A stretch of 64,000 bases of DNA. It comes from Raillietiella orientalis (Eukaryota). Shown piece by piece: positions 3,208-56,996 of the stretch (position 1 is its first letter; each line of letters starts with the position of its first letter). The position numbers were made by a program, and so were the translations under genes. A model generated the notes under the pieces. That model ran no database searches, was not told the origin of the DNA, and was given only the letters and a program-made list of their open reading frames with translations. The DNA lies in contig JAYWIR010000005.1 in the NCBI GenBank assembly GCA_036172245.1, forward strand, positions 2,356,001-2,420,000, in the 5' to 3' direction.

Positions 3208-6135
3208 GCCAAGGGATTTGGGGAAGGGCCGCGTGACGAAAGGTGCTATCTTCAGGCACGACGTTACGTGAGAACCCTCGACATGCGCAGGTTAGCAGAG
3301 TATCGAGCGGGAGCCGAGAGGCAAGCCTGGCAATCCGGGTCAACTAGCTTCCTGGACGACCATGGCCGGGAGCACTCGGCTCCTGCTCAGAAGCGCGGGA
3401 TTGTGAAGAAATTTTACTCCTCCCTGTACGCCAGGGCGCCTTCGGAGCAAGACGTCTCACGACTTCTGCTTCCGGAAGGTGCTCCAGCGATCGGGGAGGA
3501 GGAGAAAAGAAGCCTCGACGAGCCTTTCACAATGGACGAGATCCTCTCGGCCATCGGAAAGCTCAAGAGGCGGAAGGCTCCACGGGAGGACGGCCTGCCC
3601 GTGGAGTTTTACCAAACTTTTGCGGCTGAGCTTACCCCCCTGGTACAGCAACTCACCTTGCTGATTCGAGAGACAGGTGACGTTCCCACCTTGTTTCGTT
3701 CAGCAAAGGTGCGGCTCCTCCCGAAGGGAGGAGACCTAAGGAGCAAGAACAACTGGCGTCCCATCACAATAGTGAATGCGGACGCCAAGTTGATAGCCAA
3801 GATGTGGGCAGGGCGTCTGGGACGGGTTGCCAACATCTTGATCAGCCCGGAACAGCCTTATGCTGTTCCCGGGCGGAGCATGGCGGCGAACCTGATCCAC
3901 GCTTCCACATGGTTAGAGCTCCAACAAGGAAGGGGCTTATTAAGCAGCCGGAATTCCGGTGCGTCCGTTGGCGGGAGACGAAACGGTTGAGTGGGGAAGG
4001 GAGCCCTTGCGGTCGCTGTCGACTTGCGTAAAGCATTCGACAGCGTCGACCAGAATCTCCTGCTGGAGCTTCTGGAACGCTTGAGCTACCCGTCCTCTTT
4101 GTTGGCCTACCTGCGCTCCAGCTGGCGCGACGAGCTTATTAATGTTCTTGTCAGCGGGCCAACCGTGCACAGAGTACCGGTGCGTAGCGGCATACGGCAG
4201 GGAGACAGCCTGGGCCCCCTGCTCTTTAGCGCCTTTTTTGAATTGGTGCTGAGAGCGTACAGGGAGACTCTGACGCAGCTTATGCGCGATTGTCTTGGTA
4301 CGTGTGCGGTTTCGGCATAAGAGGACGATCTTCTGCTTCTGCTCCCTATGTCCACCCCGGCTGCGGCGGTCGAGGAGTTCTTCGACCTGCTGCATCGGGG
4401 AACCGGACTTACGGTGAACAGGGCGAAGTCGTCCGTGATGCCAGTTGGTGCGGCGTGGGCAGGGCAGCAGGACTGGGTCCATTTGGGGATCCCCACGGTG
4501 AGGTACTTCAAGTACCTTGGTGTGCCGTTGGGGGACTACTCCCCTGCGGAAGCGTGGTCCGGCTGCCTTCAAAAAGTAGAGACGGCGATCGGCCCGTTCC
4601 GAGGCGGCAGGTTTTTCCTGCCTGAACGGGCCGCGGTTTGGAACACGTTCGCGGCTCCTCTTCTCCGGCCCCTGCTTTCTGTTTGCCCCTCCACAGAGAG
4701 GATTAAAAAGCGGACAAAGGACCTCCTCCGTATCGCCCTTTGGGGCAACGGGAGGGCCCGAGTCCGCTCAAAGGACTTGTGCGCTCCTCGTCGGGATGGT
4801 GGTCTGGGCCTCCTGACGCTGGAGCGGCTGGAACTTCAGCTCCAGTTCCGCTTGTCGGCACTCGTTCCAGAGTTGTGGTGCACCTGTTGGTGCGTCCCTG
4901 CACGTCTCCTTCTCCAGCAAGCCACCGGCAAGACGGGACTGACGTCGTTTCTTGCACTCCGTCGCCGCGTCAACCGATGCGGACTCCAGCTACGGAGGGT
5001 GGCTGTGCTGTATTGGAAAAACCCAGGATTGGTCACCTGTCGCCCTCTGAACGGTTGTGCCTGGTTGCAGGAAACCGTTCGAACGTGGGGACAGTTCGGC
5101 ATGCAACACTCCCTACAGTAACGAAGGTTCCTGTTTGGGGGTTACAGAATTTGCACGCTCCGCGAGATTGTGGAGGATCCAAAGAAGAGAGCGTGGGTAG
5201 GAAGAACCCCCCTCGCTGCTGCGCTGCCCTCCCTGATGGAAGACCTGGACAGCGATGTTGCGGCGAAGTGGGTGGTTACAGTAACAATCTCCAGAAAGGA
5301 GAAGAATATAGGAGAGTGAAAGACGGGCCGGTTAACAGACGCTGCGACCCCGAGTACGCCTCCCAATGGACTTCTGCGCTGGGGCGCGCTGTTCGATGTT
5401 CCCATTGAACATCTGAAGTGGCCCCAGGTGCTCATGAACACTTCCGCCCTCCCCTTAAAATGGCAGGAGTCGGCTCTTTTGCTGCAGCACTGGGAACTCC
5501 CCTGCAACGCCCGCCGACTCCACTGGACCTGAGGAGCGGTGGACCCCAATTGCGTCAGGTGTGGGGAACGGGACTCACTCCCCCACCTGCTAGTGGATTG
5601 TGTTGCCCTTCGGCCCCTTTGGTTTCGCTTCGCCGCGGCCATCGGAATCCCCTGCGGCAACCCCAGGGACTCACTGAAAGCCCTCTTCGTTGCCGACGCC
5701 CTTCGGCCAGCGGCCATGTTAGCAGCTTTGTGCTGCCTACGCGGGATCGTTTCCGCTTGGAGCAAGGCTACGGCAGTACAACGCAACCAGGGTGCCATCC
5801 AGCCAGCCACCCAGTTCCAGAGGAGGGCGTCCCGATGGCCTCACCTGGATCTTTGAATACAGAAGGAGCTTGCCGGCATCCTGCAAAGGATGCAACGCCC
5901 CACCAGCAGCTGTGATCCCTTCCCTTACCCTCCCAACTTTTCTTTTCTTTTTTTGTTTGGTTTTTTGTTTTTCCCCTTCCCACTGCTGCCGTGGTGGACC
6001 GTACCGGTCTGCGAATCGGTAACCCGGCAGGCTCTGTGTTTCCTCGTGGGTGGCTGGAGCAATGGTCCAGCCACCGCACGTCTGTGTAAATGTTTATTTT
6101 ACAATAAACGCCCCGGCGAAATCCGGGTGAAAATC
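3208..6135 (+). mobile_element. L1/Tx1-like element, subfamily A, ORF2 linker-RT-CCHC plus 3' UTR (host remnant right of the 1-3207 insertion)
   Basis: KAPREDGLP, WRPITIVNADAK, DLRKAFD, GIRQGDSLGPLLF, *EDD (decayed YADD), KYLGV, CVRCGERDSLPHLLVDC. Terminal AATAAA-hairpin at 6103-6135. Confidence 0.93.
6103..6135 (+). terminator. Conserved 3'-terminal AATAAA + GC hairpin (representative copy)
   Basis: AATAAACGCCCCGG-CGAAAT-CCGGGTGAAAATC; 12 copies, each at an element 3' end. Function is inferred. Confidence 0.65.
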
Positions 6136-6666
6136 GAACGCCTTGTGGAGATCGACCGCGACCGCGAACGCACCTGCGTTCCTTCCTGCCGTAGGCGCCT
6201 GTTCTTTTTGCCTGCGGCAGTGACTTTTGCAGCAGCCTGGCTTTGCTGCGCCACAACTTCCTGCAGCTGCATCTATGTACGCGCGAAAAGGATGTTCGCC
6301 TCTATGGATCGTCCCTGAACCGCGTAGGTTTGTTTCGGGCTCACCACAGATTCCGCGATACTTCCTAACCGCGCGACCCACAGCTTGGAAAACAACTTGA
6401 CGTCCGAAGATCATGTCCGTGGCGGACATGATCTTCGCCATCGAGAAAGGCTCCTCGAGTTGATGTTTCTGCTCCTTCTGTAGCGCGGGGGCGTTTTTCG
6501 GAAGCAAGCGCTGCGCCACGGCGCGCTCTGTTGTTCTACGCGCGTACAAAAAGGAGTAAAAGTTCCAAAGAAAGCGGTTTATTTTCGCGGCAGCTGAGCA
6601 TTCCTGGCCTTGGGCGTCCAGCAAGCTCGCTGACCAGGATTGCCAGGTCTGTCGCTTAGCCCCAGC
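6136..6666 (-). mobile_element. Chimeric ORF2 fragment (subfamily D linker joined to subfamily E RT up to DLHKAFD)
   Basis: 6420-6666 matches 30975-31220; 6136-6405 matches 62750-63020. The join carries a palindrome at 6405-6437. Confidence 0.8.
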
Positions 6667-10093: not shown

Positions 10094-13000
10094 TGTTTTC
10101 GTGTAAGTGTAATGCTTGTGAAAGGCATCCACGATGTCCTCAGACGACTGTCGCTTTTGGCCGTCGTACTGGATGCAGAAGATATCTGTGACCAGATTTC
10201 TCTTCTCCAGCACGCCGACTTCCCCTTTTATGTTATTGAGGACGTACCGACTCTCGTACTGATCAAAGTACTTTGAGAGGAAGCGATCTTGGATGTTCAG
10301 CTCCCGGTACGCCTCTTGCCTCCAGCGCCTATCTCCGAACTGCATGTTCGCAAACAGGTGTATTTTGTGTTTCAGGATGTCCCAGTCGGCGACTCTTCGG
10401 ATTGTTGTTGCCCTCAGAATCGCCTCCAGGACAGCCTGATGTCCGGAATGGGTTTCGAACCAGGCGGGCATGCTGATGAGCGCCGCCCTGGTGCCTTGCC
10501 TCCGCCGAGGATTCTCCGTTCTTAGGGAAAACCGCACCAGGGGGTGATCGGACACCGTAGTCATAATGTCGCGAAACCCGTGGATGCGGTTCTTAAGTTC
10601 GGTGCTGTGCAGGACGTGATCGATCGGCTTGTGGCTTGCTGCTCGCCAGACCAGTCCGAACTCGTCGGATAGCCGTCGATACGCCGTCCTTCCTCTGGCG
10701 TCTTCTGAATGAATGATCTCATCCAAGATGTTGAGATCGCCAGCAACAATCACGACGTCCTTGGAAGCAACCTTTTCACGGAGTGCTGCATGCAGCGCCT
10801 CCGCACAACGATGTTTTAGACTGTGCGGCCCGTACACGTTCACCAGGATAAGGTGAACAGTTGCGGACCAGGCCAGTCGCACGCCGATGGTTCGTCCGGG
10901 TTGGGAGCAAAACACTTCCAGAATAGAGGGGACCAAGTGGTTCTTTATTAGCACCGCCACACCCCTGATCCATGTGTTCCGTGTTCGTGTTCCGTTCTCC
11001 TTCGCTGACGAACATCTGCCCGTTGAATCGCCGTTCCATTCGCTGGCTGATCTCGAGACCCATCCTGTGGGTCTCCTGCAGGCACACGATGTCTTGTTGT
11101 GCGATGATCCGCACAATCCTTCTTCTTTTTCCCTGGTCGACCACACCGTTTACGTTCCAAAAGGCGGTGTTCAGCCTCCTGGCGGTCGATAGGGAAAAGG
11201 TCATAGAAGGGGAAGACCTATTTCTTGGCCTTCCTGAGCTTCTTCTGTCTGGGAGAGCGTGCTCTTCAGACGTCGAAGAAGCAGCGGGCTTCTCGTTGCC
11301 GGCGTCACTCTCCGTACCTGTGAGGTCGGCAATTTCCGCCTCCTCCGTAGAGTGTTCCGCCCGCGCGATCAATTTTCGAGATAGCGCCTCTATCTCGACC
11401 TTGGCTTAGAAGTTCGCCTTCACGTCGAGAAGCTGTTCCTCTAACTTCTCGCGTTTAGCGACCTCCACAACCTGGTTGATGTTCTGTTGTGTGGTGCAGA
11501 TCTTCTGCAAGATTTTCTCTTGCTGAGGACCGCTCTGCACCTCCATGATCTCCTCCGCCAGTGTTGCCAACTCCTCCGTGGTCTGCAGAGCCTCCTGCGA
11601 CACTTTAGTGGCTTCCTCTCTCTCTTCCTTCGCGCCTTCCTGCGTTACCTCCATCTTCTCGCCTTCCTGCTCTGCTGCTTCTAGGATTTTAGGAATTCCT
11701 TGCTCCTTGACGAGCATCCTCCTCTTTCCTTTCTTTTCCACTTCTATGAAGGCGTTTGCGGACACCGGGACGGCTTCTTTTACCTTCTTCGGCCTTCCTG
11801 CCTTCTGAGGCTGTTCGGCCACCTTGATGTTTCTCTCTCTCACGGGAGAGAGACCTCGAATCCTTCTGCAGTTTTCAAACTTCGGACAGCTCCCTTCCGC
11901 ATGTCCGTGTTTCTTGCAGAAGGAGCACACCTCCGGCTGCGGGCAGTTTCGGACTTGATGTCCTACTTTGCCGCAGCGAAAGCAGCGGCAAGTTGGGCAA
12001 GCGCCGGCCCTGTGGCCGAACTGCTTGCACCCGGTGCAAAATACCGGTTGTTGCCGGTAACGCACATTCACTCCCTGGGATTGTTCGTCAATAACGGCCG
12101 ATCCAGGATCACCGCTCCCTCCTTCAACTTCATCTAGGCCATCATGTCGCCAGAAAATATGTTTCCAGAGAAGTTCTGGAAATCAAGGTCCAGAACTTCC
12201 CCAAACTGCTCCATGTAATTCCACACCGCTAGTTGCGGTGTAAGGATGGTGATGCCGTTTAAAAAGACGGTTGTGTATGGCATCTCGCCAATACCACAAA
12301 CCATCCGTCCTTGTATATTGATCCCCTTCTGGATCAATCGCTCTCTATTATTTTCACAGTCTGTAAAGACTGTGAACCCGTTGCTCGATGGAATGATCGC
12401 CTGAATGCGATCAAAGTCTATGTGCGTCTTTTCGAGAGACAAATAGACCTCCCTGATGTTATTAAATTTTATTAGCCCAGTCTTGAAGATAATGGGCGTC
12501 ACGTTGGGGTCTATTTCGGCTATTGGTCGGTCCACTTTTAGAACTTTTCCGCTAAGCGGCTTACAAAATTTCCTAGGTGGGTGGACACTCGCCTGTCCAG
12601 CCGCCACCGACGCATAAGAAAAGGGCTGCGACGCCGAAGCCGAACAAGATGGCGTCGCTCCCTGCACCGCGTGGACGGCCGCGGGTCTTGCCTGGGACGC
12701 CACCGCCGCGGGCGCAAACCTCGACGTTGCCGCCGTTACCGCCGCGGGCGGCACCCTCGGCATCGCCGCCGCAGGCGCGACCTTCCCCGCCGCGGGCACG
12801 ACCCTTGGCATCGCCGCCGCCGGTGCAGCAAAGCCCGCCGCGGGCGCGATTTTCGGCATGCCTGCCGCCACCTCGCCGTTGCCGCACGTTACCTCCATGG
12901 CTTCCATGGGGGACGATGGCCTCACCACTCCTCCAACTCCAGATGTGTGCATCCTGGCAGCTGTTCCGGCTGCTCGGAACGACTGCAGGACTTCCACCGT

Positions 13001-26359: not shown

Positions 26360-26376
26360 CACAGCGGGGATTCGGC

Positions 26377-38113: not shown

Positions 38114-38258
38114 TCGGAACGGACGTGTTTCCTCAGTGCTCCTCGTGCCGGGAACCGTCCCTAGGTGTAGGCTTCGTGTGTGATGGTGGTCGATCAGGCA
38201 GCAATGCCTGACACGACCACCAGTGCGTGTAAGAGAGCGGTAGCAACGTCGCATAATA

Positions 38259-38421
38259 AAGAAATGGACTGCCAGGTGTCGGCGGCAACGTCGCCTCCAG
38301 AAAAGCTCGAGTGCCAGGGGGCGGCGGCAACGTCGCCACCCGAAAAGTTAGAGTGCCAGGGGGCGGCGGCAACGTCGCCACCCGAAAAGTTAGAGTGCCA
38401 GGGGGCGGCGGCAACGTCGCC
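38259..38421 (+). repeat. 42-bp tandem repeat x~4 in ORF1 N-terminus (ECQGAAATSPPEKL)
   Basis: Repeated gagtgccagggggcggcggcaacgtcgccacccgaaaagtta; translation in ORF 38180..38971. Confidence 0.9.
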
Positions 38422-41400
38422 TTTACTGGCGAAGGAGGTGAGGGCGTCCGCCCTCACAAAACCGGTCCCCGCTGCAGCGCGGGCGTGGAGCGCCGTCGTG
38501 TCGGCGCCATCGCCTGCAGCCGCGGCGGAATTATCTGCCTATGTGGAAGAAGTGTATAACTCATCACTATTCTACAAGGTAGGAAATTTGTATTCTGCTG
38601 AGAGTGCGCGCGCCTTTTCGAAGGGGATGCGCGCTCTCGATGTTAAAGAGGAGGAGCTCTGCACTATGACCATTCGTAGCGGGGGGCAGTACGAAGAGGT
38701 GATCTGCAAACACGCAGATCTGGCCCAACGTCTGCTCAAAACCCCCGTGGAGATAAGGACACGCAAACTCCTTCCCATTATGGCGGACCACAGTATGGTG
38801 GTCCACCTTTTAGGAGTTACCGCGCGGTTGCGGAAAGAGCAATTACATGGGAAAAGAAGAAAGAAAGGAAAGCGTTGGGAAAAGAAGGCACAGTCCATGC
38901 AGTATGGATTAAGCATAGTACTTTCAAGAACTATACCACAGTTCAGTGCGCTCTCACAAGTGCCCGTATAACCGTTCGGAAGAGCTCTACCCTTCCCTAC
39001 GTACTAATGGTCAGCGGAGAAAGCGTCGATATCTGGTAGGTGGGGAAGTCCAAATACTGTGGCTTCTGCAACACGTCGGGACACCTCAAAAGGAGGTGCC
39101 CCAACGTACAGTGCCTGGTATGCGGGACAATGGGCCACACGAAGGAAGTGTTTCCACAATCCGCTGTGCGCGTGGTTTCCGCGAGGAACCTAAAAAAACG
39201 CGCGCGGCTGCTACAGAAAACGCTGGCGTCGAAGGCTGCCGCTCAAGCTGTGCCACCCACGCCCGTGGTCCACGCCGCAGCCGACACTTGGCAGCGAATG
39301 CGGAAACGATCGACAAAAGCGGTGAGGGGCCGGAATGGCAAGAAGCAACAGCGAAAAAGTAAAAGTCGAAGAAAGAACGACGAATTGAAAAAAACCTCGC
39401 CCACCTAAATAAAAAACAGCAGGTTAGCAAGAATTTAAAAGAATACAGCGTCGTCGTGGAACGCGTTCCCACCGAACGCCGCAAGGTAGAAATAGCTGCT
39501 ACTGATGAGCAACCCACTTTTGAGAATGTCAACAGCGTGGGGAGCGAACCTGCGGAAGCGTCCGTCATCGAGTCCGTGATCGATGACGCCGCCTTCGAGC
39601 GTGCGGCGGAAGGGCTGGCTGCATCGTTGCAGCCAGACCCCTACAAGGCTGGCAAAAAGGCAGTCAGGCGTCCGGCCTCCATCGAGAAGTCGGTAACTTT
39701 CAACCCCGAAGCGCAGGCCGGAAACGAAATTTCCATCTCCGCGGCACGCCGCCGGAAGGCTGGAAGGAAGTCTAGCAAACCCCGGAAAGCCTTTCTCCAG
39801 GCCGAAGGCGTGGAGATGACTTCGGACTGCGAGGGTGCCATGAGCGTGAGAGAATACCGAGAATCGTCACCCGAGAGACCACCACGCACAGACACGGAGG
39901 AGATGGAAGGTGTTGAAGCCGGAAAGGTACCCAAGGTGCCTGAAGAGGCCGAAACCCTAATGGTCATCTCACCCTCCTAGGAAGAGGCGGGTTCTCCCAC
40001 ACCGTCATCTTGCCGACAATAATGCCGGGAAGCTCCTCTTGCCGTCGTCTGCGCATCGCCGTATGAAACGTAAACGGCATGACAGACGCCGGCAGGAGAC
40101 GAGACATGGCCGCCATTCTAGGATCGTTCGACCTCGCGCTGCTGCAGGAGATCCATGTGATCTCTGCCGAAGAAGCGCAGGAGATCAAACGCATCTCTGG
40201 AGAGCGGCTGTGGTATCGGTGTGGAAAATCGAGAAGTTGTAGTGTCGCCTACCTGCTTCGTCCCGCCGTCGAGGCCGCGGCCCGTGGCGTTCGGTTGGAC
40301 GATCACGGTCGTGTCGGCCTGCTGACTCTCAGCTGGTCCGACTAGATCGACCTGATCGTCACGAACGTTTAGCCCCGAGCGGAGCGGACCTGACGAAGAG
40401 GAGGGTCAGGAAAGAATTTTTCCTCGCCCTGCGTCGCGACTGGTTGACCGAGGCAGGCGTACGGAATGCATATCTGGTTTCAGGCGATCTTAACGTTCTC
40501 CTGAAACCGGATGGGCCGAATCACGAGCGGGACCTGGTCAACAAGGTGTGCACGGCGGTGCACACTTGTAATTTGTTGGCCAGTGTACCAGGGATGGAGG
40601 ACAACATCGATCACGTGTTCCTTGACGAGCACCTGTGCACTCGTGTGGGCAAGCCCTTCAAGTTACCGTGCGAGTTGTCGCACCATCGATCAATCGTGGT
40701 TGAAATCCATCCGCGCGACAGGGGCCCCCGCTCGTCAGCGTGGCGTTTGCCAGGGGACTGGATGAAGCCTTCGGACGCGACGGAACATCTTCGCACGTTT
40801 ATACGGAGCTTCCGAATGCAGACACCACAGGATTGGGACCGCTTCAAGCGGTCGGTGCAGGAGTTTTGAGACCAGTTCCCTCTGCACCGCCTACCTACAA
40901 GTTTTGGGACCAGGTATTCTAACGAACGAGCCTATCTCCAGTCTCGCCGTTACGCCAGGACCCCCGACATCCGTAGGTTGGCGGAATACAAAGCGGGAGC
41001 AGAGCGGCAAGCATGGCAGTCAGGATCGGCCAGCTTAATGGACGATCAAGGCCAGGAGCATTCGGCACCCGCTAAGATCCGAGGTCTGCTGCTGCGCTTT
41101 TACTCCTCCCTGTACGCAACAGCGCCTCCCGAGCGGGATTTCTCTCGAATCCTGATTCCGGAAGGCGCTTCCTCGATCGGGGAGGAGGAGAAAAAGTCCC
41201 TCGACGAGCCTTTCACGATGGGCGAGATTATCACGGCCATCGGAAAGCTCTAGAGGTGCAAGGCTCCAGGGAAGGACGGCCTGCCCGCGGAGTTTTACCA
41301 AAACTTTTGCGGCTGAGCTTAACCCCTGGTAAGTCATTCCACCTTGCTGATACCCGACACAGGTGACGTTCCCGCCTCGTTTCGTTCGGCAAAGGTGCGG

Positions 41401-41688
41401 CTCCTACCTATGGGAGGAGATCTCAGGAGCATGAACTTTTGGCGTCCCATCACAACAGTGAATGCGGATGCCAAGGTGATAGTTGCCACCCGGTCACGCC
41501 GGGGCGTTTATTCAAAATTCTCTTGGGTTCGTGGTACGAGGCCCCACTACGGCCAACTCAACTGGACCTGCCGGGTCGCCGGTACGCAGACCGGCGCGAC
41601 TCTCCTCGGCAGCGGAAGGGGGTGGGGGAAAAAACAAAAAGAAAAATAAAACATAAAAACAAAAAGATTTGGGAGGGTTGGGGAGGGA

Positions 41689-44600
41689 TCACTGACCACT
41701 GGGAGTAGGGTCCATCCTTCGCAGGATGCCCTCGAGGTCCGTCCGTATAATTCCCAGGTGGGGCCATCTGGTCACAATCCGCAGGTAGCGGACTGCAAGT
41801 ACGACGGCATCCCTGTCGTGATTCGGTCTTCCGACGTTGCTCCAGCACGTCACAATCCCGCGTACGCAGCAAAGTGCAGCCAGGGCAGCGGCTGGACGCA
41901 CGGCATCATGCACGAACAAAAGCCGAAAAACGTCTCTGGGCTAGCTGCCGTCCTGGATCCGTAGGGAGGCACGAAGACGTTCCCACAGGGGTCGGAGGGC
42001 AGCACAATCAACAAGGAGGTGGGGGAGGGTTTCCCGTTCCCCACACCTGATGCAGGTAGGATCTACTCGACCCCTGGTCCAGTGGTGGCGGCGTGCGTTG
42101 CAGGGTAGACCCCAATGCAACAACAGAAGCGCCGACTCCTGCCACTTCAGGGGGAGGATCCTAGATCCAATTAATACCGGGAGCCACTTCAGGTCATCCG
42201 GCTGGATGCCGAGTAGCTCGCCCCATCTCTGCAGCCCTCTCGGCTGGACACTAGGGGTACTGGCGTCCGCCAGTTCACCCGTGGACCAGCCGCTGATCAA
42301 CTTCTCCTTGTCTGCGATGCGGCAGGAGACTTGCCACCTAGACTTGCGGCTGCTGGAGAGCGCCCTCCTCAGGAAGGGCAACGCCGTAGCTAGGGGGGAT
42401 GTCTCTGCCCACGTGCTTCTCGCGGGACACTGAAGTATCTTCCGCAGAGTGCAGCGGGAATAGGCGCCGCGTCGCAGGCAGTTCCACATCTCTTCATTTT
42501 TTTCAATTATCTTCGCCCACGTGCCAGCTGTCTCCTCCAGCCATGCGGAGGAGTTGGCGGGGCTGCATACCATCCAGCCGTTTTCCTTAGCCAGAGTTGC
42601 CATGCGTCCCAGGAGAAGTCCGCATCTCTTGATCTTCCTGCCACGGCACAGAAGATAGGACGAGAGACCCTCCGTTCCGGATACACGGCTGGCAAGGAGT
42701 CGGGCCGGAACGCACCAAGAAGTGCTCCATAGCTTCGCTGCGATGGCGAGGGTTCGCCACCGCAGCTGAATCTCTAATCGCTCCATCGTCAAGAGGCCGA
42801 GACCGACATCCCGACGTGGAGCACACAAGTCCTTCAACGGGACTCGCGGCCTCCCTCTTCCCCAAAGGGAAATTCTCAGGAGGTCCTTTGTCCGTTTTTT
42901 CAACTCTCTGGGGACGGGGCAAACAAAAAGCAGGGGGCGGAGGATAGGAGCCGCGAACGCGTTCCATACAGCGGCCCGTTCCGGAAGGAGAAATTTGTCT
43001 TCCAAGAACGGGCCGATCGCCGTTTCCACTTTTTGGAGGCAGCCAGACCACGCTTCCGCAGGGGAGTAGTCCCCCAACGGCACACCAAGGTACTTCAAGC
43101 ACCTCGCCGTGGGGATCCCCAAGCGGTCCCAGTCCTGCTGCCCAGCCCACGCCGCACCGACTGGAACCACCGTCGACTTCGCCCTGTTCACCGTCAGTCC
43201 GGTCCCGCGGCTAAGAAGATCGAAGAAATTCCCGATCGCCTTCTCCGGGGTGGACATCGGCAACAGAAGCAAAAGATCGTCGGCGTACGCTGCTACGGCG
43301 GGCGTGCCGGGGCACAAGCTCGGCAAGGGGGCCAAAGTCACCCTGTACGCTCTCAGCACCAACTCAAAGTAGGTGCTAAAGATCAGGGGACTGAGGCTGT
43401 CGCCCTGCCTATGCCCCGCCGTACCGGCACGCCGTACGCCATTTGACCTCTGAAAGAGATATTCATCAGCGCGCCGCGCCAGCAAGAGCGCAGGTAGGTC
43501 AGTAGGAAGGGAGGGAAGCCCATGCGTCCCAGGAGCTCCAGCAGGAGATCCTGCTCCACGCAGTCAAACGATTTATGCAGATCGACTGCGATCGCTAGGG
43601 CTCCCTTCCCCACCTGGGAGTCCTGTCCCTGCCCGGCTGACGCCCCCAAAGCGGGGCTGCCAATCCTTCTCTCTTCCTTTTCTTTACTACTCTGCACATG
43701 GAACCATGTGCTCGCGAAGAAGAGGTTGGCCTCCATACTTCGCCCGGGAACAGGGTAAGTCTGCTCCGGGCTAATTATGGAATTGGCCACCTGCCCCAGA
43801 GGCGAAGCGCACAGTCCGGCGATCAGCTTGGCGTCCGTGTTCCAAATTGTGATCGGATGCCAGTTGCTGAGTTTCCTGAGGTCTCCTCCTTTCGGAAGGA
43901 GCCTCACTCTGGCTGACCGAAACGAGGCGGGTACATCGCCTTCATCTCGGATCAGCCTTGTCAACTCAAGCACCAGGGGTGCCAACTCTGCCGCGAAGCA
44001 TTGAAAAAACTCCGCAGGCAGGCCGTCCTCCACTGGTGCTTTCCGCCTCTTGAGCCTTTTGATACCGGCGAGAATTTCGCCGGTGGTTAAAGGCTCGTCG
44101 AGGCTTTCCTTCTCCTCCTCCCCTATTGCCGGGGCACCGTTCGGAAGCAAGCGCCGAGAGGCATCTTGGTCCGGGGGCGCCCTGGCGTAAAGGGAGGAAT
44201 AAAAAGGCCGCACGAGGTGCCGTATTCTAGCCGGAGCCGAGTGCTCCCGGCCCTGGTCGTCCAGCAAGCTGGCCGATCCGGATTGCCAGGCTTGACGTTC
44301 GGCCCCGGCTCGGTACTCTGCCAGGCGACGGACATTGGGGGTCCTCGCGTAACGACGGGCATACAAGTACGCTCGTTCGTTACGGATGCCCTCCCCAAAT
44401 CCCCGGAACAGGAGGTGCAAGGGGAACTCCTCGCAAAACTCGCGGACCGAGGCCTTAAAAAGGTCCCAATCATTAAGATTGCGGAGGGTGACGCCTCTCA
44501 GGAATTCCCGAAGGTGTTCCTTCGCACCTGAGAGTCGCGTCCAGTCCCCAGGCAGACGCCACGCCCTGGATGTGGGGCCCTTGTCGCGCGGGCACACCTC

Positions 44601-45275
44601 GAATATCAACCGGAAATGGTCAGACAGCTCCGACGCAACTTTCCCCCGTTTGCCGACCCGTAAACACAGGTCGACATCCAGGAAGACGTGGTCGATGCTG
44701 CTGACCATTTCCGAAAGATCCCCTAACAAGTTGCGCGTGCGCATGGCGGCGCACAACTCGTTAGCCGTCCGTTCCTGTGCGTGTGGCTCACCTGTTAGCA
44801 GGCGGAGATTAAAGTCTCCCGCTATCAGGTGAGCCACGCACACGTTTGCTTCCGCCAGCCAGTCGTGCTCCAGGGTTTCCAGGAACTCCTTACGTTCCTG
44901 GTACCTGGTAGGACCGCTCGGAGCGTACACATTTGTTACGACGAGGTCGATCGTGTCGGACCACCTGAGAATCAGCTGGCCGACACGACCGGCTTCGTCG
45001 AAGCGCACGCCCTTCACGGCTGCGTCGACTGCCGGCTACATAAAAAACGCAACGCCGCAGGTGTATCGGGTGCCGCATTGCCACATCAACCGTCCCCCTG
45101 CGATCCTTTCGATCTCCTGGGCGTTCTCCGCGGTGATCACGTGGATCTCCTGCAGGAGTGCCAGGTCGAAGTCACGCAGGGTGGCGGCCGTGTCCCGTCT
45201 GTTGCCGTCGTCTCGCAGCCCATTGACGTTCCAGCAGGCCACGCGTAATCGACGGCGACAGGCGAGCCCAGATGT
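41689..45275 (-). pseudogene. ORF2 APE-RT-CCHC, frameshifted
   Basis: ORFs 45036..45242, 43383..45017, 41941..43485 and 41689..41919 are consecutive pieces with all motifs, including AYADD. Confidence 0.92.
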
Positions 45276-47371
45276 TACTCCTGGGAAAGTGGCAATGGGG
45301 CTCCCGCCACCTGGTCGGGCGGGACGGATGGAGGAACGGGATCACCGCGCACCGGTTCTCCCTCCTCCATGGGGGCCGATTCCTCGGCGGACAGCAATGG
45401 TTGAAGGGGGCGGGTTTCACGCACCTGCTCCCCCTCTTCCATGGGGGCCGATTCGTCGGCTGCGTTGGACGGCAGGGGGGAGCGGTTGTCAGCTGTCTGC
45501 TCCCCCTCCTCCATGGCTATCTCCTGGACAGGTTCCACCGTTGTGAGGGGGCGACAATCACTCACCTTATCCCCCTCCTCCATGGGGGTCTCCAGTTGCT
45601 CGGTAGCGGAGGGTGGGAAAATCCCTCCCTCCGTTCCCACGCTGCCGGCTTCCCCCTCGGATGCCGGTGCGTCCCCCTCCTTCTTTGTCGGGATGCGCCT
45701 TTTGGGATTCTTGGACTTCCGTCCAGTCTTCTTCGGAGGCGCCTCCGCGGAGGAGGACGCACTTCCGGCATCCGATTCGTGGTCACCTGTCCGAGGTGCC
45801 TTACTCGCGGCCGGCCTTTGCAAGGCCTTTCGCGCGCCGTTCTCACGCTCCGCGAGTTCGGCCGCGAGCTCTTCCGCCGCCTGCTGGAAGGCGGCGTCCT
45901 CGATTGCGGCGAGCGCGTCGCTCGGCTCCCCCTCTGTTTGCACAGAGGGTTCGCCTTTTTCGATCGCGGCTTCGGCGTCAACGAGGCGGGAGATATCTCC
46001 CCCGGTGGAGGTCTCGGGGATCTCCACTCGCTCCAAAGCGACCGAACATTCGCGGAGCAACGCGCGGCGTTGTCTCCTATTTAAAGAAGATGTCGCGGGT
46101 TCCGCTGTCGGTTCTTCGGTTTTCTTTAATTTTTTACTTTTAGGCTTCGCCTTATGCCAGTCCTCGCTCTCTCCAGCGTCGTCGGGAGTACCCTCGACCG
46201 ACGCTTGCTGCACGGGTTCGGGCTCTGGCTGTGGGTTCCGCCTCTCGGGTGCCTCCTTAGGCTTGTCCGATCGCCCTGCGCGTTTCCCTTTGGCTTTTTT
46301 CAAAGCAGGGGGAGCCGGGGTTTCGCGTTTAGGACACACCTTCCGCAGGTGGCCCTTTTCGCCGCAGTGGAAGCACTGGATGTGGGGGCACCGTTTTTTC
46401 AGGTGCCCTGTTGCATCACAGTGCCCACAGTACTTGGGCTTGCCCACGTACCAGACGTCGACGACCTCGTTGCCGACGTCGAGTTTGTGGGGCAGCCCAC
46501 CGTTTTCGTGGACCGTCACACGCGCTGCAGCCATGCCACTGAACAGTCTTCCGTATGTTTGGAAGACGTTGGGCTTGTTCCAGAGCGCGTGCACCGTACC
46601 ATGTTTTTGTAACTCTTCCTGCACGCCAGCTTTGGTCATGCAAAGAGTTACACCCGTAAGGTGGGCAACAATGGAGCGGTCCTCCGTTACAGGGAAGACC
46701 TTTCGGCCTTCCAGAGTGATGGGAGTGTTCAGCAGGCGTTGAGCCAGACTTGCATTTTTGCACGTCAGCTCCACCCGCTGGCCCCCACTCATCACGGAGA
46801 GACCTTCCAGGTCTTCCTCTTTAACATCCAACCGCTGTAACTCCCTTTCAAAGTTACGAGCGGTGTTCCCTATAAACAGGTTTCCTACCTTGTAAATCAA
46901 GGACGGCTTGTATCCTTGTTCCAGGTAGGCCCGTTGTTCTGCTAAGGCAGCAGGAGATGGCGCTGCAGCCACGGAGCTCCAGGTCTTCGTGCATGGAGCA
47001 GGTGGATCCAAGGACGCGGTTGCCCTCTTTTTCAAGGAGGCGTTTGCGCCCTTTTCCAAGGCGGCGGTTGTCCCCTTTTTCAAGGGGGCGGTTGCGACCT
47101 TTTCCAAGGCGGCGGTTGTCCCCTTTTTCAAGGGGGCGGTTGCGGCCTTTTGCACGAGGACGGTTGCTCCCTTTTTCAAGGTGGCAGTAGCCCTCGTTTC
47201 CGGAGAGGCAATTGCCCCCTTTTTCAAGGGAGCGGTTGCTCTCTCCTCCGTGAGAGCAATTGCCCCCACCTCAATAGGTTGGGGAGAGGAGCAATCCTCT
47301 TCCCCGCCTCCTTCCATCGCGGTGTCCTCAGGCATTTCTGCCATTGGACACCGCAGATGCTCCACACACAA
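45275..47371 (-). CDS. ORF1 gag-like nucleic-acid-binding protein (two CCHC knuckles, long low-complexity tail); real start probably the ATG near 47344
   Basis: 698-aa open frame; CGHCDATGHLKKRC, CFHCGEKGHLRKVC. Confidence 0.9.
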   Translation of the reverse strand: MCVEHLRCPMAEMPEDTAMEGGGEEDCSSPQPIEVGAIALTEERATAPLKKGAIASPETRATATLKKGATVLVQKAATAPLKKGTTAALEKVATAPLKKGTTAALEKGANASLKKRATASLDPPAPCTKTWSSVAAAPSPAALAEQRAYLEQGYKPSLIYKVGNLFIGNTARNFERELQRLDVKEEDLEGLSVMSGGQRVELTCKNASLAQRLLNTPITLEGRKVFPVTEDRSIVAHLTGVTLCMTKAGVQEELQKHGTVHALWNKPNVFQTYGRLFSGMAAARVTVHENGGLPHKLDVGNEVVDVWYVGKPKYCGHCDATGHLKKRCPHIQCFHCGEKGHLRKVCPKRETPAPPALKKAKGKRAGRSDKPKEAPERRNPQPEPEPVQQASVEGTPDDAGESEDWHKAKPKSKKLKKTEEPTAEPATSSLNRRQRRALLRECSVALERVEIPETSTGGDISRLVDAEAAIEKGEPSVQTEGEPSDALAAIEDAAFQQAAEELAAELAERENGARKALQRPAASKAPRTGDHESDAGSASSSAEAPPKKTGRKSKNPKRRIPTKKEGDAPASEGEAGSVGTEGGIFPPSATEQLETPMEEGDKVSDCRPLTTVEPVQEIAMEEGEQTADNRSPLPSNAADESAPMEEGEQVRETRPLQPLLSAEESAPMEEGEPVRGDPVPPSVPPDQVAGAPLPLSQE
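47010..47245 (-). repeat. ~24-bp/48-bp degenerate tandem repeat in ORF1 (ATAPLKKG / TTAALEKG)
   Basis: Repeated ccctttttcaagg...gcggttg units; visible in the ORF1 translation. Confidence 0.85.
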
Positions 47372-47689
47372 ACACTACCGAAAAAGAACGCTTTACAACA
47401 GGCGCAGAGAAGCGCGGAAAAAACACGTCCGCACGCCAAGTTGATAGCTAAGGTTTCGGCTGAGAGTTTGGGACGGGTTGCAAACGCCTCCATCAGCCCG
47501 GAACAGACGTATGCTGTTCCGGGGCGAAGCATGGAGGCGAACCTGTTCCACGCTTTCACCTGGCTAGAGCTCCAACACGAAAGGGGCTTGATGCGCACCG
47601 GGAATTCCGGTGAGTTTGTTAGCCATGCGACGGATGGTCGGATGGGGGAGGGAGCACTTGCGATCGCTGTGGACTTGCGTAAAGCATTC

Positions 47690-49119
47690 GATTTTTGCCC
47701 TGATTTCCCTGGGCGTTTATTGTTTAATAAACAATCACGAAGACGTGCATTGGCTGGACCTTTGCTCCAGCCACGCACGAAGAAACACAGAGCCTGCCGG
47801 GTCACCGGTTCGCAGACCGGTACGGTCCACCACGGCAGCAGGGAGAAGGGGGAAAAACAAAAAACAAAACAAAAAAGAAAAGAAAAGTTGGGAGGGTACT
47901 CGAAGGGATCACAGTTGCTGGTGGGGCCGTTGCATCCTTTGCAGGATGCCGGCAAGCTCTTGCTGCATGCCTGGATCCAGGTGAGGCCATCTGGACGCCC
48001 TCCTCAGGAAATGGGAGGCTAGCCGGATAGCACTCTGGTCTTGTTGTCCTCCCGTAGCCTTGCTCTAGGCGGTGACCATCCCGCAAAGGCAGCACAGGGC
48101 TGCTAACGAGGCCCCTGGCCGAAGGGCGTCGGCAACGAAGAGGGCTTTCAGAACGTCCCAGGGGTTGTTGCACGGGATTTCGATGGCCGCGGCAAAGCGA
48201 AACCAAAGGAGCCGAAGGGCAACACAATCCACTAGCAGGTGGGGGAGGGACTCCCGTTTTCCACACCTGACGCAATTGGGGTCCACCTCTCTCCAGGTCT
48301 TGTTGTGTCGACGGACGTTGCAGGGGAGTCCCCAGTGCTACAACAGGAGATCCGACTCCTGCCATTTCAAGGAAAGGGTGGAGGTGTTCATTAGTACCGG
48401 GGGCCACTTCGAACTTTCAATGGGAACGTTGAGCAGCGCGCCCCAGCGAAGTAGTCCATGGGGAGGCGAACTCGGGGTGGCAGCGTCTGTTAACTGGCCC
48501 GTCTTCCACTCTCCTATCTTCTTCTCCTTCCCGGAAATTGTTACTGTAACCTCGCACTTCGCCGCAACATCGCTGTGCAGATCTTAAATCAGGGAGGGCA
48601 GCGCAGCAGCGAGGGGGGTTCTTCCTGCCTACGCTCTCTTCTTTGGATCCTCCAGGATCTCGCGGAGCGTGCAGCTCCTGTAACCCTTAAACAGGAACCT
48701 TCGTTTTTATTGTGAGCGTTGCATGCCGAACTGTCCCCACGTTCGAACGGTTTCCTGCAACCAGGCACTACCGTTCAAAGGGCGACAGGTGACCAATCCT
48801 GGGTTTTTCCGGTACAGCGCAGCCACCATCCGTAGCTGGAGTCTGCATCGGTTGACGCGGCGACAAAGTGCAAGAAACGACGTCAGTCCCGTTTTGCCGG
48901 TGGCTTGCTGGAGAAGAAGACGTGCAGGGCTTCCCCAACAGTTCTCCACAACTCTGGAACAAGTGCCGATATTCGGAACTGGAGCTGAAGCTCCAGCCGC
49001 TCCACCGTCAGGAGGCCCCGACCACCGTCCCGACGACGAGCGCACAAGTTTTTCAAGCGGACTCGGGCCCTCCCGTTGCCTTAAAGTGCAATACGGAGGA
49101 GGTCCTTTCTCCGCTTTTT
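47690..49119 (-). mobile_element. Subfamily A element, 3' 1.4 kb
   Basis: Inverted close homologue of 4703-6135, including 3' UTR and terminal motif ending AAAATC. Confidence 0.92.
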
Positions 49120-50869
49120 AGTTTGACAAAGGACAAGGGGCCTCATTAGAAGAGCCCTCTGGGGCAATCGGAGGCCCCGCGTCCGTCTTAAAGACCTGTG
49201 CGCTCCACGCAGGGACGGTGGACTTGGTCTCCTGACGCTGAAGCGCATGAAGCGACAGCTCCAATTCCGTAAACTTGCCCTTGTGGCAAAGTACTGGACC
49301 TCACCCTGGTGTGCACCTTCACGACTGCTGGCTCACAGGGCAACCGGCTGCCATGGATTGACCTCAATCCTAGTATCCAACGACCGCAGCCTTAACCACT
49401 GTTGTTTTCAGCTTCGAAAATTGGTTGCCCTGTTGAGAGACAATCCGTGGATCTCCTGCATCCCAGCGGACTGGACTACCTGGCTACAGGAATCCGTTTC
49501 CGCATGGGCTACAATCAACGGCTCCAGCGATGAGGACTTCTCCTGACTCCGTAGAGGCAGGCACGCTGGTCAGTCACTGCAGGAGATCGTCAGCAGCCCA
49601 CGGAAGCTTCTGTGTTCCTCCTTTACCCCCCTTGCCCCAGTGCTGCCCTCCCTCAGGGAAGTTCGTGACAGCCGCCAGGAGGCATCGTGGGAAGTGTGCT
49701 GCTTCATCGGAGGCAGGAAAAAATTATTGAAGGCGTGGACGTCTCGGGAACTAGCGGACGCTAGTACCCCGAGTGTCCCGCCGAATGGACTTTCACGCTG
49801 GGGCGCGCTGCTCGAAGTACCTCCGGAGGAAATGAAGTGGCCCCCGGCGTCGTAAGATAACGGCACCCTTCCCCTGCAGTGGCAGGAGACGGCTTGCTTC
49901 TGCTCCATTGGGGACTGTTAAGAAGAGCGCGCTTGTCTCTCTGGACACACGGGAGTTTGCACCCGGTCACGCCGGGGCGTTTATTCCTAAACACTTTGTT
50001 TTCGCGGTACGAGGCCCCGCTACGGCCAATAGTTCTTTAGACCTGCCGAGAAGCTGGCTCGCAGGCCGGCTTGACTCTCCTCCGCGACGGAGGGGTTAGA
50101 GGGTAAAAACGAAAAGAAAAATAAAAGAAATAAACGAAAAGAAACTATTTGGACGGCCGGGAAGAGATCAGAACCCGCTGGAGGAAGAGACCATCCTTTC
50201 GAGGTTGGTCACAGGACACACGGGAGTGTGGATGCTTATTGCCCAGACTGTGAAGAACGAGAAACCTTTCCTCACTTTATTGTTGAGTGCGTTGCCCTAC
50301 GCGATATCTGGGACCGACTCTCGTCGATATTGAACATTCCGCGGGGCAATCCGAAGAACATTTTTCGACTCCTGATGCGGGACGCCTTGCCAGCTTCCGG
50401 GTGTGTAGCGGTGCTTTGTTGCATACGCGGAATACTGGACAAGTAGACCGCGTCAAGGAGAGGACATGCCAGTCGGAATGCCATCCACTGGGCAACCATC
50501 TCCTTGGAGAAGGCCTGCCGTTGGCGCCGACTTGGGAAACACTTACAGGCACTCGTGCGCATACGTGACCGGATGCAGAGGCCTTCTCACGGGGTACCGT
50601 GATTCCTACCCTTTCCTCTTCTTCCCGAAGAACATTGCCCCCCAGACGTTTTCTTTTTTTTTTTTCCTCTATTTTTGTTTTTCCCCGCCCCATCGCCAGT
50701 GTTGAAGACCATATCGGCCTTCGGATCGGTAAGGACAAGTGCCTCAATACAGTCTGGCAAAGTTTCCAGACTGAAGAAAACTTAATTGAAGAAATATGAC
50801 TTTATTATAGAATTTTGTGCACTTGAAAAATTTTAGTAATAAAAGCCCCGGCTCACCCGGGTGAAAAAC
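49120..50869 (+). mobile_element. Subfamily C-like element, ORF2 C-terminus and 3' end
   Basis: RVRLKDLCAPRRDGGLG, EEMKWPPAS, CPDCEERETFPHFIVEC. Terminal motif 50838-50869. Confidence 0.88.
49955..50213 (-). mobile_element. ~260-bp 3'-UTR-only insertion with TSD
   Basis: ggacacacggga(gt) at 49943 and 50214. The insert has the 3' UTR layout and terminal motif of subfamily B. Confidence 0.9.
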
Positions 50870-53491: not shown

Positions 53492-55610
53492 GATGTTACC
53501 CGGATACGCCAAGACGTTTATTAAAAACATTTCAACAGTCAATACAGAACGTGGTACAAGGCCACACTGACGGCCACGCTATACCGGAACTGCCGGAACA
53601 CCGGGACGCAGCTCGGTGTGGCTCTCCTCGGCAGTGGAGGAGGATTGGGGAGAAAAAAAAATAAAAGAAAAGAGAAAAACAAACCACAAAAAAAAGTTTG
53701 GAGGGCCGGGAGGGGATCACAGAAAACTGCTGGGAGGGCCCATCCTTTGCAGGATGCCTTCAAGTTCCATTTTCAGTTTTGCTCGATGGGGCCATCGGAT
53801 AGCTCTCTGCAGGAAGCGAGAAGCATACTCGATCACGTTCCTCACGATGCAGTCTTCATCTTCGGCATCACTCCAGTCCGCCACGATACCACGAATGCAG
53901 CAAAGTGCTGCCAGGGCTGCGGCTGGACTGATCGCGTCCCGCGCGAACACAAGACTGTAGACACATCCAACATTGCGAGCATCCGGTATCCCAAGGGCCG
54001 TTTTAAGACGATCCCAAAGAATCCGGACGGCAGGGCATTCCACTAAGAGGTGGGGGAGCGACTCCCGCTCCCCATACTTGGCACACGCAGGATTTACTCT
54101 TCTTTGCGTCCAGTGGAAGCGGCGCGCGTTGCAGGGTAGACCGCAATGCAGCCACAGAAGCGCTGATTCTTGCCACTTCAGGGAAAGAATCCTGGATCCA
54201 AGTAGAACCGGGGGCCACTTCAGGTCATCAAATCGGATGCTGAGCAGCTCGCCTAATTTTCTTAATCCACGCGGCTGGAGACTAAGGGTCGTTGCTTCTG
54301 TCAACTCCCCCATGGTCCAGCCGCTCATCATCTTCTCTCTGCCTGCGATACGGCAGCAGACTTGCCACCTTGGCTTCCAACTTTTGTGGAGCTCCCTTTG
54401 GAGGAAGGGCATCGCCGTAACAAGGGGTGTGCCTTCCGCCCACGTGTACCTCGGTGGAAATTCAAGAATTTCACGAAGAGTTCGGCGGAAGTAAAAGCCG
54501 ACTCGCAGGCAGTTCATCCGGTCTTCGCACCTCTAGTTCTGCTTAGCACAGGTGCCAGCAGTCTCTTCCAGCCAAGCGGAGAAGTTGGCGGGCCCACAAA
54601 CCATCCAGTCGTTCTCCTTTGCCAGGGTTGCCATGCGGCCGAACAGTAGACCGCATCCTCGAATCTTCCGGCCAGGGCACAGAAGAAACGATGCGAGTCC
54701 TTCGCAGCGGGACACATGCCTGGCCAGGAGGCGGGCCGGAATGCACCAAGCGGTGCTCCACATCTTCGCTGCGATGGCGAAGGTTCGCCATCGCAACTGG
54801 ATTTCCACGCGCTCCAGCGTCAGGATGCTCAGATCGCCGTCCCGACGCGGAGCGCACAAGTCCTTCAAAGGGAAACGGGGCCTCCCCTTGCCCCAAAAGG
54901 GCTATGCTAAGGAGGTCCTTCGTCCTCTTTTTAACAACTCCTGGGGCGGGGCAAACAAAAAGCAAGAAGCGGAGGATAAGGGCCGCAAAGGCGTTCAAAA
55001 CCACGGCCCGTTCTGGCAAGTGAAACTTGCCTTCCAGGAACGGGCCGATCGCCGTCTCCACTTTTTGGAGGCAGCTGGACCACGCTTCCGCAGATGAGAA
55101 GTTTGCGAACGGCACACCGAAGTTCTTGATGCACCTTACCGTGCGAATTCCCAGATGGACCCAGCCCTGCTGCCCTGCCCACGTCGCTCCAACTAGGAAC
55201 ACCGACGACTTCGCCCTGTTAACCTGTAATCCGGCCCCACGGCTAAGCAGGTCGAAGAAATCTCCGAACGCCTTCGTCCGGGTGGACATAGGTAAGAGGA
55301 GCAGAAGATCGTCGTCATACGCCTCTTTGGCTGGCGTGCCGAGGCACGAGCTCGGCAATGGGGCGAAAGTCACCCTGTACGCTCTCAGCACCAACTCAGC
55401 GTAGGTGCTAAAGGGCAGAAGGATTAGGCTGTCGCCCTGCTTCATGCCCCGCCGCACCGGCACGCCATACACCTTTTGTCCACTGAAAGTAATCGAGATT
55501 ATCGCGTTTCGCCAGCAAGAGCGCAGGTAGGAAATCAAGGAGGGTGGGAAGCCCATACGACCCAGGATCTCCAAGAGGAGTTCCTAGTCAACACAGTCGA
55601 ATGCCTTGTG
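53492..55610 (-). mobile_element. Subfamily B' element, RT (from HKAFD) to 3' end
   Basis: Inverted homologue of 7365-9631; ORFs 54543..55574 and 53717..54517. Confidence 0.92.
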
Positions 55611-56996
55611 CGCTCTAGGGCGGACGTGTTTTCTCGGTGCTTCTCGTGCCAGGAAGTCTCCTCCAGTGCAAGCGTCGTGTGTTTCGGTGGTCAATCAGGC
55701 AGCGATGCCTGACGCGACCACCAGGGATGGCCAGGGGGCAGCGGCAACGCCGCCCCAGAAGCGATGGAGAGCCAGGGGGCGGCGGCAACGTCGCTTCCAG
55801 AGGCGATGGAGGTGGGGGCGTCCGCCCTCACAGAAGCGATCGCCGCTGGAGCGCGGGCGTGGAGCGCCGTTGTGTCGGCGCCATCGCCTGCAGCCGCGGC
55901 GGAATTGTCGGCCTATGTAGAGGAGGGGTATAACCCCTCATTGTTCTACAAGGTAGGCAATTTATATTCTTTGGAGACCGCGCGCGCCTTCTCGAAGGGC
56001 ATGCGCGCTCTTGATGTGAAAGAGGAGGAGCTCAGCGCTATGACCATGCGCAGCGGGGGTCAGTACGTTGAGGTCATCTGCAAACATGCAGAGCTGGCCC
56101 AACGACTACTTAAAACCCCCGTTGTGATGAAGACGCGCAGGCTCCTCCCCACTACGGCGGACCGCACCATGGTGGTCCACCTGTTAGGCGTAACCGCGCG
56201 AATGCGCAAAGAACAGGTTCGCGCCGCTTTGGAACAGTTCGGAACGGTCCACGCGCAGTGGACGAAAGTAAGTCCTTTCTAGGACTACACGGGACTGCAA
56301 CACGGCCTCACTGCTGCGCGCGTGATCGTTCGGGAGGGCTACACACTTCCCCACAAACTGGTGGTCGAAGGCGGAACCTCCGACCTCTGGTATGTGGGGA
56401 AGCCGAAATACTGTGGCTTCTGCAATACGTCGGGCCACCTCAAAAAGAGGTGTCCCAACGTGCAGTGCCAAGTATGGAAAACCATAAGAAACACGACGGA
56501 GGTGTGCCCTAAAGCAGCAGTGCGGGTGGTTTCCAAGAGAAACCTTAAAAAACGTGCCCGGCTTCTGCCGAAAAGGCTGGCGGCGAAAGCTGCCGCGAAG
56601 ACTGTGCCACCCGCGCCCATGGTCCAGGCCGCACCCGAGACCCTGGCGAACAACGCCAAACAAGTCGAGGGAACATGCCAGGAGCCTCGGTCGCAGGTGG
56701 CTACGGCCAAAAAATTAAGAAGGAGAGGAGGATGGAGAAAAAGCTCGCGTACCTTTAGAAAAAACAGCAGGCAAACGAGCAAATTAAAGAATGCAGCGTT
56801 GTCGTCGAGCGTATTCTCGACCGCTGCAAAAAACAACTTGCCGCTACCGACGACCACCCCTCTGTTGACTCTGTCAACAGCGAGGGGAGCGAGCCGGCGG
56901 CGGCGTCCGTCATCGACACCACCATCGATGACGTAGCCTCCGCGAGAGCCGCGGAGGAGCTGGCAGCCTCGTTGCAGCCAGAACCCTCCGCGGCCA
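55611..56996 (+). mobile_element. Subfamily A element, 5' end and most of ORF1
   Basis: 5' motif GGGCGGACGTGTTTTC; ORFs 55764..56282 and 56322..56936 are homologous to 38180-39640. Confidence 0.9.

Follow-up and report, generated by a model that had tools for sequence, protein, structure and literature searches.

Long interspersed nuclear elements (LINEs) with a fixed insertion site are already known to target ribosomal DNA (rDNA), telomeric repeats, small nuclear RNA and transfer RNA genes, microsatellites and one DNA transposon. Among the families with an apurinic/apyrimidinic endonuclease (APE), target specificity is described for the Tx1 and R1 clades, and 'transposons' are named as LINE targets, in the sections of the overview covered here (PMC4640811). 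Tx1L of Xenopus laevis, which belongs to the Tx1 group of the L1 clade, has its target inside the transposon Tx1D and possesses a sequence-specific endonuclease, and the endonuclease of R1Bm cuts a 14-bp target region on both strands (both from the part of PMC1919474 considered here). The non-LTR (long terminal repeat) element Cnl1 of Cryptococcus 'inserts preferentially within itself' and forms nested arrays, according to the available excerpt of PMC9942834. Here we describe a 64-kb stretch of the genome of Raillietiella orientalis (contig JAYWIR010000005.1, positions 2,356,001 to 2,420,000; called the window in the following), which consists almost wholly of pieces and full copies of one non-LTR retrotransposon superfamily. 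All four termini of one of its lineages, lineage A, lie in antisense orientation at the codons for motif A ('DL-x-KAFD') of the reverse transcriptase (RT) of related elements. We consider it likely that this L1-like lineage inserts there by sequence-specific target-primed reverse transcription (TPRT), its own lineage being included among the targets.

Lineage A resembles Tx1L in being an APE-type, L1-related LINE with a specific target inside another transposon. However, Tx1L, as far as the source describes it, targets a DNA transposon and neither the coding sequence nor a catalytic motif of a sibling LINE. R1 is APE-type, too, and in the portion of the literature covered it resembles lineage A in its single fixed orientation, the precision of its 3' junction and the 14 bp of its target region, but its target is a multicopy gene of the host, the 28S rDNA. 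Among solved structures, the protein of the second open reading frame (ORF2) of the window had its best relatives in human L1 ORF2p (E = 1.3e-45) and the L1 endonuclease L1-EN, whereas no endonuclease of R1Bm or TRAS1 was found at E <= 0.001. LINE-only islands like the one described here are also formed by Zepp and ZeppL, L1-like LINEs of green algae. In the descriptions covered, Zepp clusters are chromosome-specific (centromeric) tandem arrays consisting mostly of 3' ends, for which neither a defined target motif nor an antisense rule is given, and ZeppL of Chlamydomonas is about 8.3 kb long compared to 5.9 kb here. The window is instead a nested, mainly antisense cluster in which several lineages coexist at 50-65% amino acid (aa) identity. 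Tandem self-nesting of the Cnl1 type was not found in the window: Cnl1, in the excerpt considered, lies in tandem (same) orientation near telomeres, in contrast to antisense insertions into defined coding motifs by several diverged lineages with their own sites. The literature searched, with the original Zepp paper (PMC1169995) and supplements outside its coverage, contained no LINE targeting the RT codons of other LINEs. What sets the window apart from these systems is a target that is defined at nucleotide level in the codons of a catalytic motif of a sibling LINE RT and is hit antisense with a 14-bp duplication, as well as the coexistence of several lineages with their own sites and a second lineage-specific site in the same gene.

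The exact junctions were set by comparison with intact paralogous sites. Copy A1 (3213..6133, + strand), comprising all of ORF2 downstream of about aa 302 and the 3' untranslated region (UTR), has its 3' end at 6133/6134. It abuts an E-like host (6134..6407, - strand; ORF2 aa ~489-580) that matches the intact E copy (62750-63024) with 95.6% identity and whose 14-nucleotide (nt) target CACAAGGCGTTCGA occupies 6134-6147 on the - strand; in host sense the junction (marked here and below by a slash) reads ...GTCGATCTCCACAAGGCGTTCGA / TTTTCACCC... The 3' end of A2 (47692..49126, - strand; 5'-truncated, ORF2 from about aa 786 to the end and 3' UTR, 88% identical to A1) lies at 47691/47692, reading ...GTGGACTTGCGTAAAGCATTCGA / TTTTTGCCC... 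Its host is the second part of A3 (47430..47691, + strand; ORF2 aa ~492-581) with the target CGTAAAGCATTCGA at 47678-47691 on the + strand. The first part of A3 (38114..41482, + strand), consisting of the 5' end, ORF1 and ORF2 aa 5-495, itself begins at 38113/38114 in element C (35997..38113, - strand), which extends from the target CGTAAAGCTTTCGA at 38100-38113 (- strand) through its own 3' end. With the antisense 5' end of A3 on the left, this junction reads ...CCGTTCCGA / CGTAAAGCTTTCGATTCCGTC... in host sense. In the same arrangement, A4 (55611..57002, + strand; 5' end and N-terminal part of ORF1) begins at 55610/55611 with ...CCCTAGAGCG / CACAAGGCATTCGACTGTG... Its host B' (53495..55610, - strand) runs from the target CACAAGGCATTCGA at 55597-55610 (- strand) through its own 3' end. 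In coordinates of the E ORF2 protein, the host breakpoints are aa 580, 580, 578 and 577 for A1, A2, A3 and A4, respectively, and the inserts are antisense to the host in 4/4 cases.

All four junctions had been noticed in the initial annotation, at coordinates differing by 1-2 nt, and its assignment of the target to RT motif A agrees with our alignment to human L1 ORF2p. There, the site is the counterpart of IDAEKAFD, and the downstream YADD that of FADD. The first aspartate of motif A is catalytic. The target site duplication (TSD) of 12 nt proposed at that time has to be corrected. The intact E copy reads CACAAGGCGTTCGAc, i.e. ...TTCGAc, at 63011-63025, with the unoccupied target (63011..63024, + strand) representing the 'empty site' for the junction in the E-like host. 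Since intact E continues ...TTCGAc, ...TTCGA is still part of the host, and directly after it follows the A-run of the element; the '(ga)' that had been set apart in brackets thus belongs to the host. Both 3' junctions are precise in this respect. Because the same 14 nt, (CGT/CAC)AARGCNTTCGA in host sense, are kept at both junction types, a TSD of 14 nt is implied. Between host lineages the 14-mers differ: the one in the E-like host equals the intact E site and the one in A3 equals A1's own site. It follows that they come from the host and do not travel with the element, by which a terminal repeat of the element is ruled out. At the 5' junctions, 7 (A3) and 11 (A4) extra nt lie between the host and the conserved element start GGACGTGTTT at 38121 and 55622, respectively; such extra nucleotides are usual at LINE 5' junctions. 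As the A ends match the 3' signature and the 5' start of the other lineages of the family, they are true element ends.

INDEPENDENCE of the four events was judged by the identity on either side of the junctions and by the placement of the hosts in trees. In the 3' pair (A1/A2) the element sides are 88.2% identical (1231/1396), the host sides 62.2% (158/254). The values for the 5' pair (A3/A4) are 72-85%, depending on the length compared, and 67-70%, some of the identities in this pair being depressed because a tandem duplication in the 5' UTR gives rise to indels. The trees joined the E-like host to E (100/100), the second part of A3 to A1 (100/98), and C to M and B' to P5 (each 100/≥99); the aa identity of C and B' to E is 58-59%. 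A3 is inserted in C, and the mid-ORF2 tree puts it with A1 and not with P5. The drop of identity at the junctions together with the different host lineages indicates independent events and not one duplicated junction, and the difference in hosts also means that no 3' junction can have arisen together with a 5' junction in a single event. Independent insertion into four different host subfamilies (E, A, C and B'), as first suggested from inspection of the sequence, was supported in this way. The same applies to the suggestion that all inserted ends belong to subfamily A. A1 and A2 were sisters in the 3'-end tree (100/100) with F next to them, and A3 and A4 were sisters in the 5'-end tree (100/100). 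A3 is the only copy overlapping A1, and A1 is the nearest relative of both of its parts (81% vs 74% for the next best; support 92/95 and 100/98). A3 bridges A1 and the 5' ends, hence the 5' and 3' ends belong to one lineage. With divergences of 12% (A1/A2), 19% (A1/A3) and about 24% (A3/A4), this is an old and loose lineage. Since A3 is both a lineage-A insert and the host of A2, lineage A hits itself; the target in A1 itself, with a perfect core, is unoccupied.

On the two strands of the window, 9 copies of the core AARGCNTTCGA were counted, compared to 0.43 expected copies and a maximum of 2 in 100 shuffles. All of these copies (9/9) are located at RT motif A and 4/9 adjoin a terminus of lineage A. 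A census of 20 termini was made, comprising 12 3' ends and 8 complete 5' ends and leaving out the 5' end of element N, whose start is ill-defined. The motif-A site was met by 4/4 termini of lineage A and 0/16 of the others (Fisher's exact test, one-sided, p = 2.1e-4). Independent insertions at one site, in one orientation and with a precise 3' junction, as expected of a target-specific LINE, were thus found in a small sample from one window.

Support comes from a second hot spot, which occupies aa 302-305 of the host ORF2. Here P5 (9629), G (20575) and B' (53495, in element N) abut the host antisense with their 3' ends, and the 5' end of element X1 (~3207), which cuts A1 on its 5' side, is found there in antisense, too. 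The 3' end of H (26378) and the 5' end of G (26353) are arranged head-to-tail with only 24 nt of target-like sequence between them, an arrangement best read, from its sequence, as a tandem double hit at this site. In host sense the site is ...GG(A/T)TT(T/C)GG(G/C)G(A)^ with duplications of 20-24 nt. For the P5/B' pair the identity is 88.9% on the element side and 76.5% in the flank. P5, G, H and B' form, together with D, one well-supported clade distinct from A, and the 5'-end and mid-ORF2 trees both place X1 with G. Antisense orientation applies to all four events at motif A as well as to those at the second hot spot with a readable flank; head-to-tail arrangements are only H to G and M to N. 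Altogether, the junction evidence from the window amounts to four junctions at the first and about six at the second hot spot. Lineage-specific, site-specific and orientation-fixed insertion is a property of the family, which makes site-specific insertion at motif A much more credible.

The family itself shows the features of ordinary TPRT products. D (41483..47429, - strand) is a full-length element of 5947 bp from another clade, which interrupts A3 in antisense at ORF2 aa 492-495 and served as coordinate ruler. In A1 coordinates, 18 nt are common to the two A3 parts. This overlap is the TSD of D, in which 15/18 positions still match, and it identifies the family as products of normal TPRT. 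Besides TSDs, 5'-truncated copies (A2, P5, S9) and a defined A-rich 3' end were found. The 3' signature common to the lineages consists of AATAAACGCC, followed by a 5-bp CCCGG/CCGGG hairpin and a short A-rich tail of 2-5 A without a long poly(A); A1, for example, ends with ...AATAAACGCC-hairpin-TGAAAA. The signature motif has 12 matches in the window (2.5 expected), the common 5' start GGACGTGTTT 10 (3.7 expected).

The G+C content of the window is 52-63% (2-kb bins), and 74 stop-to-stop frames on both strands reach 200 aa or more. By tblastn and blastn against the window about 30 pieces were seen, the lineages of which differ by 35-50% in protein. ORF1 of the family contains a CCHC knuckle. 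A 906-aa ORF (61283-64000) matched the Pfam domains Exo_endo_phos (APE; E = 3.3e-11) and RVT_1 (E = 2.8e-19), so that ORF2 shows the N-terminal APE and central RT of the L1 superfamily. Its distant matches in protein databases carry zf-RVT (PF13966), which is common in L1-clade elements.

From these observations the following course of an insertion may be proposed. The ORF2 protein of lineage A would nick the sense strand of the host at 5'-(CGT/CAC)AARGCNTTCGA^(C/T), and the freed 3'-OH would serve as primer for reverse transcription, which would start at the ...GAAAA terminus of the lineage-A RNA. Priming at this end from a nick in the sense strand would leave the insert antisense to the host. 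A cut of the opposite strand 14 bp upstream (in host-sense coordinates) would generate the 14-bp TSD, and the 5' end would be joined untidily with 7-11 extra nt. The geometry of the junctions is observed, whereas the nick positions are inferred. By analogy to Tx1L, R1Bm and TRAS1 the steps probably follow in this order and the specificity probably resides in the endonuclease and not in pairing between RNA and target, and we would expect it to hold genome-wide. Each hit would inactivate the host RT, as its motif A would be cut off from motifs B-E; repeated hits may lead to antisense nests of LINE within LINE.

RNA-guided homing has to be weighed against this. A weakly specific endonuclease might suffice if transcripts of copies already located in KAFD sites carried read-through tails of the type TCGAAYGCYTT... 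that annealed to nicked or broken KAFD sites of other copies and directed priming, and indeed a target-complementary tail would be available in the 3' flank of each A copy inserted. A loose nick preference shared by both hot spots is also conceivable, as the cores resemble each other (TTCGA^ and TT(T/C)GG(G/C)G(A)^). In other target-specific LINEs, structures at the 3' terminus of the RNA reportedly matter for precise initiation, a finding ascribed to Anzai and colleagues (2005). But both 5' junctions show a stagger of 14 nt and an identical exact position on the second strand, which suggests cleavage of both strands directed by protein, and an AATAAA polyadenylation-type signal about 22 nt before the 3' end may make read-through rare. 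As, moreover, the known target-specific LINEs of the APE type have endonucleases that are themselves sequence-specific (in the part of PMC1919474 covered), we regard guidance by RNA as unlikely.

Segmental duplication of one or two ancestral junctions, with flanks later homogenised or replaced by gene conversion, has some basis in the distant blocks shared within the window, e.g. 7975-10067 and 55127-53054, which are 84.8% identical across a junction. It is very improbable nevertheless, because divergence is much greater in the host flanks than in the inserts (62% vs 88% identity) and these flanks fall into different well-supported clades, the identity changes abruptly right where the element terminates, each 14-mer is that of the lineage of its host, and the 3' and 5' junctions, lying in different hosts, are not halves of one event. 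Chimeric joins made by the assembly at a conserved motif might be suspected in such a dense repeat nest, motif A being its most conserved stretch. Short contigs can indeed give apparent joints: for 37001-57000, sequencing run X1 (share 0.04) gave 620 short contigs (300-500 nt), 11 of them at 99% or more, in which the family is abundant and the joints are cross-mappings in RT regions that are uninformative on the four junctions. Misjoins, however, would link sense to sense and not a motif to the exact antisense terminus of another element; the extra nucleotides occur at 5' junctions only, and the same anatomy is seen at the second hot spot and in D with its TSD. An artefact of this kind therefore seems even less probable than duplication. 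Finally, random insertion into a tolerated 'graveyard', combined with coincidence or retention bias, would account for nesting in general, as only insertions into junk survive. But retention bias cannot put four termini on the same phosphodiester bonds, and random placement beside one of the 9 cores has p ~7e-5 per terminus, so that an absence of specificity is effectively refuted.

Some observations weigh against site-specific insertion of lineage A into motif A, or limit it. The sample consists of four junctions from one 64-kb window. No A copy has kept both ends, and the TSD is deduced across different events. The truncated 5' end of A2 adjoins the unrelated element M at 49127 and not the downstream half of A3; this joint has to be put down to some rearrangement after the insertion or to an atypical way of joining. 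In the 3'-end tree F is the sister of A1/A2, but it is inserted elsewhere (aa 277), indicating that the specificity is narrow. Likewise D, although inside the clade of the second hot spot, lies at a different site (aa 492-495), which means that the target cannot simply be read from clade membership. Perfect cores are unoccupied in 5/9 cases; besides the site in E these are located at 4030 (A1), 31708 (F), 28481 (H, - strand) and 22687 (G, - strand). Two variant motif-A sites are uninterrupted, too, namely AAATCGTTTGA (KSFD) in D at ~43575 (- strand) and AAAACATTCGA (KTFD) in P5 at ~7369 (+ strand), and the occupancy of motif-A sites in the window is 4/11. These variants bear on the suggestion in the initial annotation that a host could not easily mutate its site, but the unoccupied sites with a perfect core have to be set beside them. 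The reading frames of all lineage-A copies are broken, including that of the lineage-A APE domain in A3 (40010-40730), and there is no sign of current activity of the lineage.

A broader interpretation, which we put forward tentatively and with rather less than even confidence, would see the LINE lineages as mutual 'homing' parasites. Each endonuclease may have evolved for a different conserved motif of sibling ORF2, KAFD in the case of A and 'GFG(D/E)' at aa 302-305 in the case of G, H, P5, B' and X1. A motif that is needed by an active competitor could not drift easily, and hits would kill rivals or dead copies and spare host genes, with a LINE-only island as by-product. If this applied, the 'insertion into existing copies' of the Zepp type would gain a mechanism at sequence level, and nature would offer APE endonucleases that recognise 11-14 nt or more. 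Should the motif-A specificity of lineage A be true genome-wide, it would represent a clear case of targeting of transposon by transposon in which the target is kept from escape by its own function. It would also explain self-building, possibly centromere-like LINE-only islands, and reveal APE-type endonucleases with long recognition sequences, of use for understanding and perhaps redirecting LINE target choice.

Searches beyond the window yielded few relatives. A metagenome scan with the 14-nt 3' signature AATAAACGCCCCGG gave at least 120 loci, but tblastn with five ORF1/ORF2 proteins of the window (E <= 1e-8) found relatives at 0/120 of the matches listed; these matches are due to chance. 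The protein search with E ORF2 gave 26 matches, of which only P0001, on a 2.9-kb contig, was close (tblastn 59% to E and 69% to A1). An ORF spanning a junction (host RT and antisense 3' end of A) found, in the search for homologous proteins, only P0001 with the RT part alone, and had 0 matches among representative proteins; further copies of the junction were thus not detected in protein space.

The 5' start GGACGTG(T/C)TT was seen in diverged lineages at 3203, 19104, 26353, 38121, 47430, 55622, 57003 and 59314, usually with ..GC directly before it. Judged by its sequence, it could be an internal promoter or initiation element; we take it to resemble the downstream promoter motifs of the RGWCGTG type. 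The 5' UTR of A3 contains a tandem duplication with a period of 84 nt (38267-38337 and 38351-38421, 90% identical), and its counterpart in A4 aligns with indels. A4 is cut by the 5' end of O at 57003. O and Q adjoin A4 and O, respectively, with complete 5' ends (57003 and 59314) and in the same orientation. In the head-to-tail arrangement of M and N, the 3' end of M is followed by the 5' region of N (50869-50905). The 3' end of C (35997) adjoins an ORF1 fragment in sense. A short fragment of a D-like 3' UTR (49956-50198, - strand) is inserted antisense in M. At 10352..12493 (- strand) a much more distant relative is embedded in the nest, whose ORF2 N-terminus is 25-29% identical to E and whose ORF1 is 26-37% identical to that of D.

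At two head-to-head joints, 49126/49127 and 6666/6667, - and + strand pieces of different lineages meet at nearly the same ORF2 coordinate (aa ~786/804 and aa ~333/344, respectively). The arms at 49126 form an imperfect palindrome (75.6% over 135 nt, with an offset of 10 nt). Twin priming and a hairpin or fold-back were rejected for these joints, since the arms come from different lineages (75.6%), each with a separate 3' end; models based on recombination likewise fail to fit. A perfect 14-nt inverted repeat, GAAGATCATGTCCG-tgg-CGGACATGATCTTC, is present at 6407-6437, exactly where the E-like fragment (6134-6407) meets an F-like fragment (6416-6667), both on the - strand. The F-like fragment is 85% identical to 30972-31224, and about 73 codons are absent between the two pieces.

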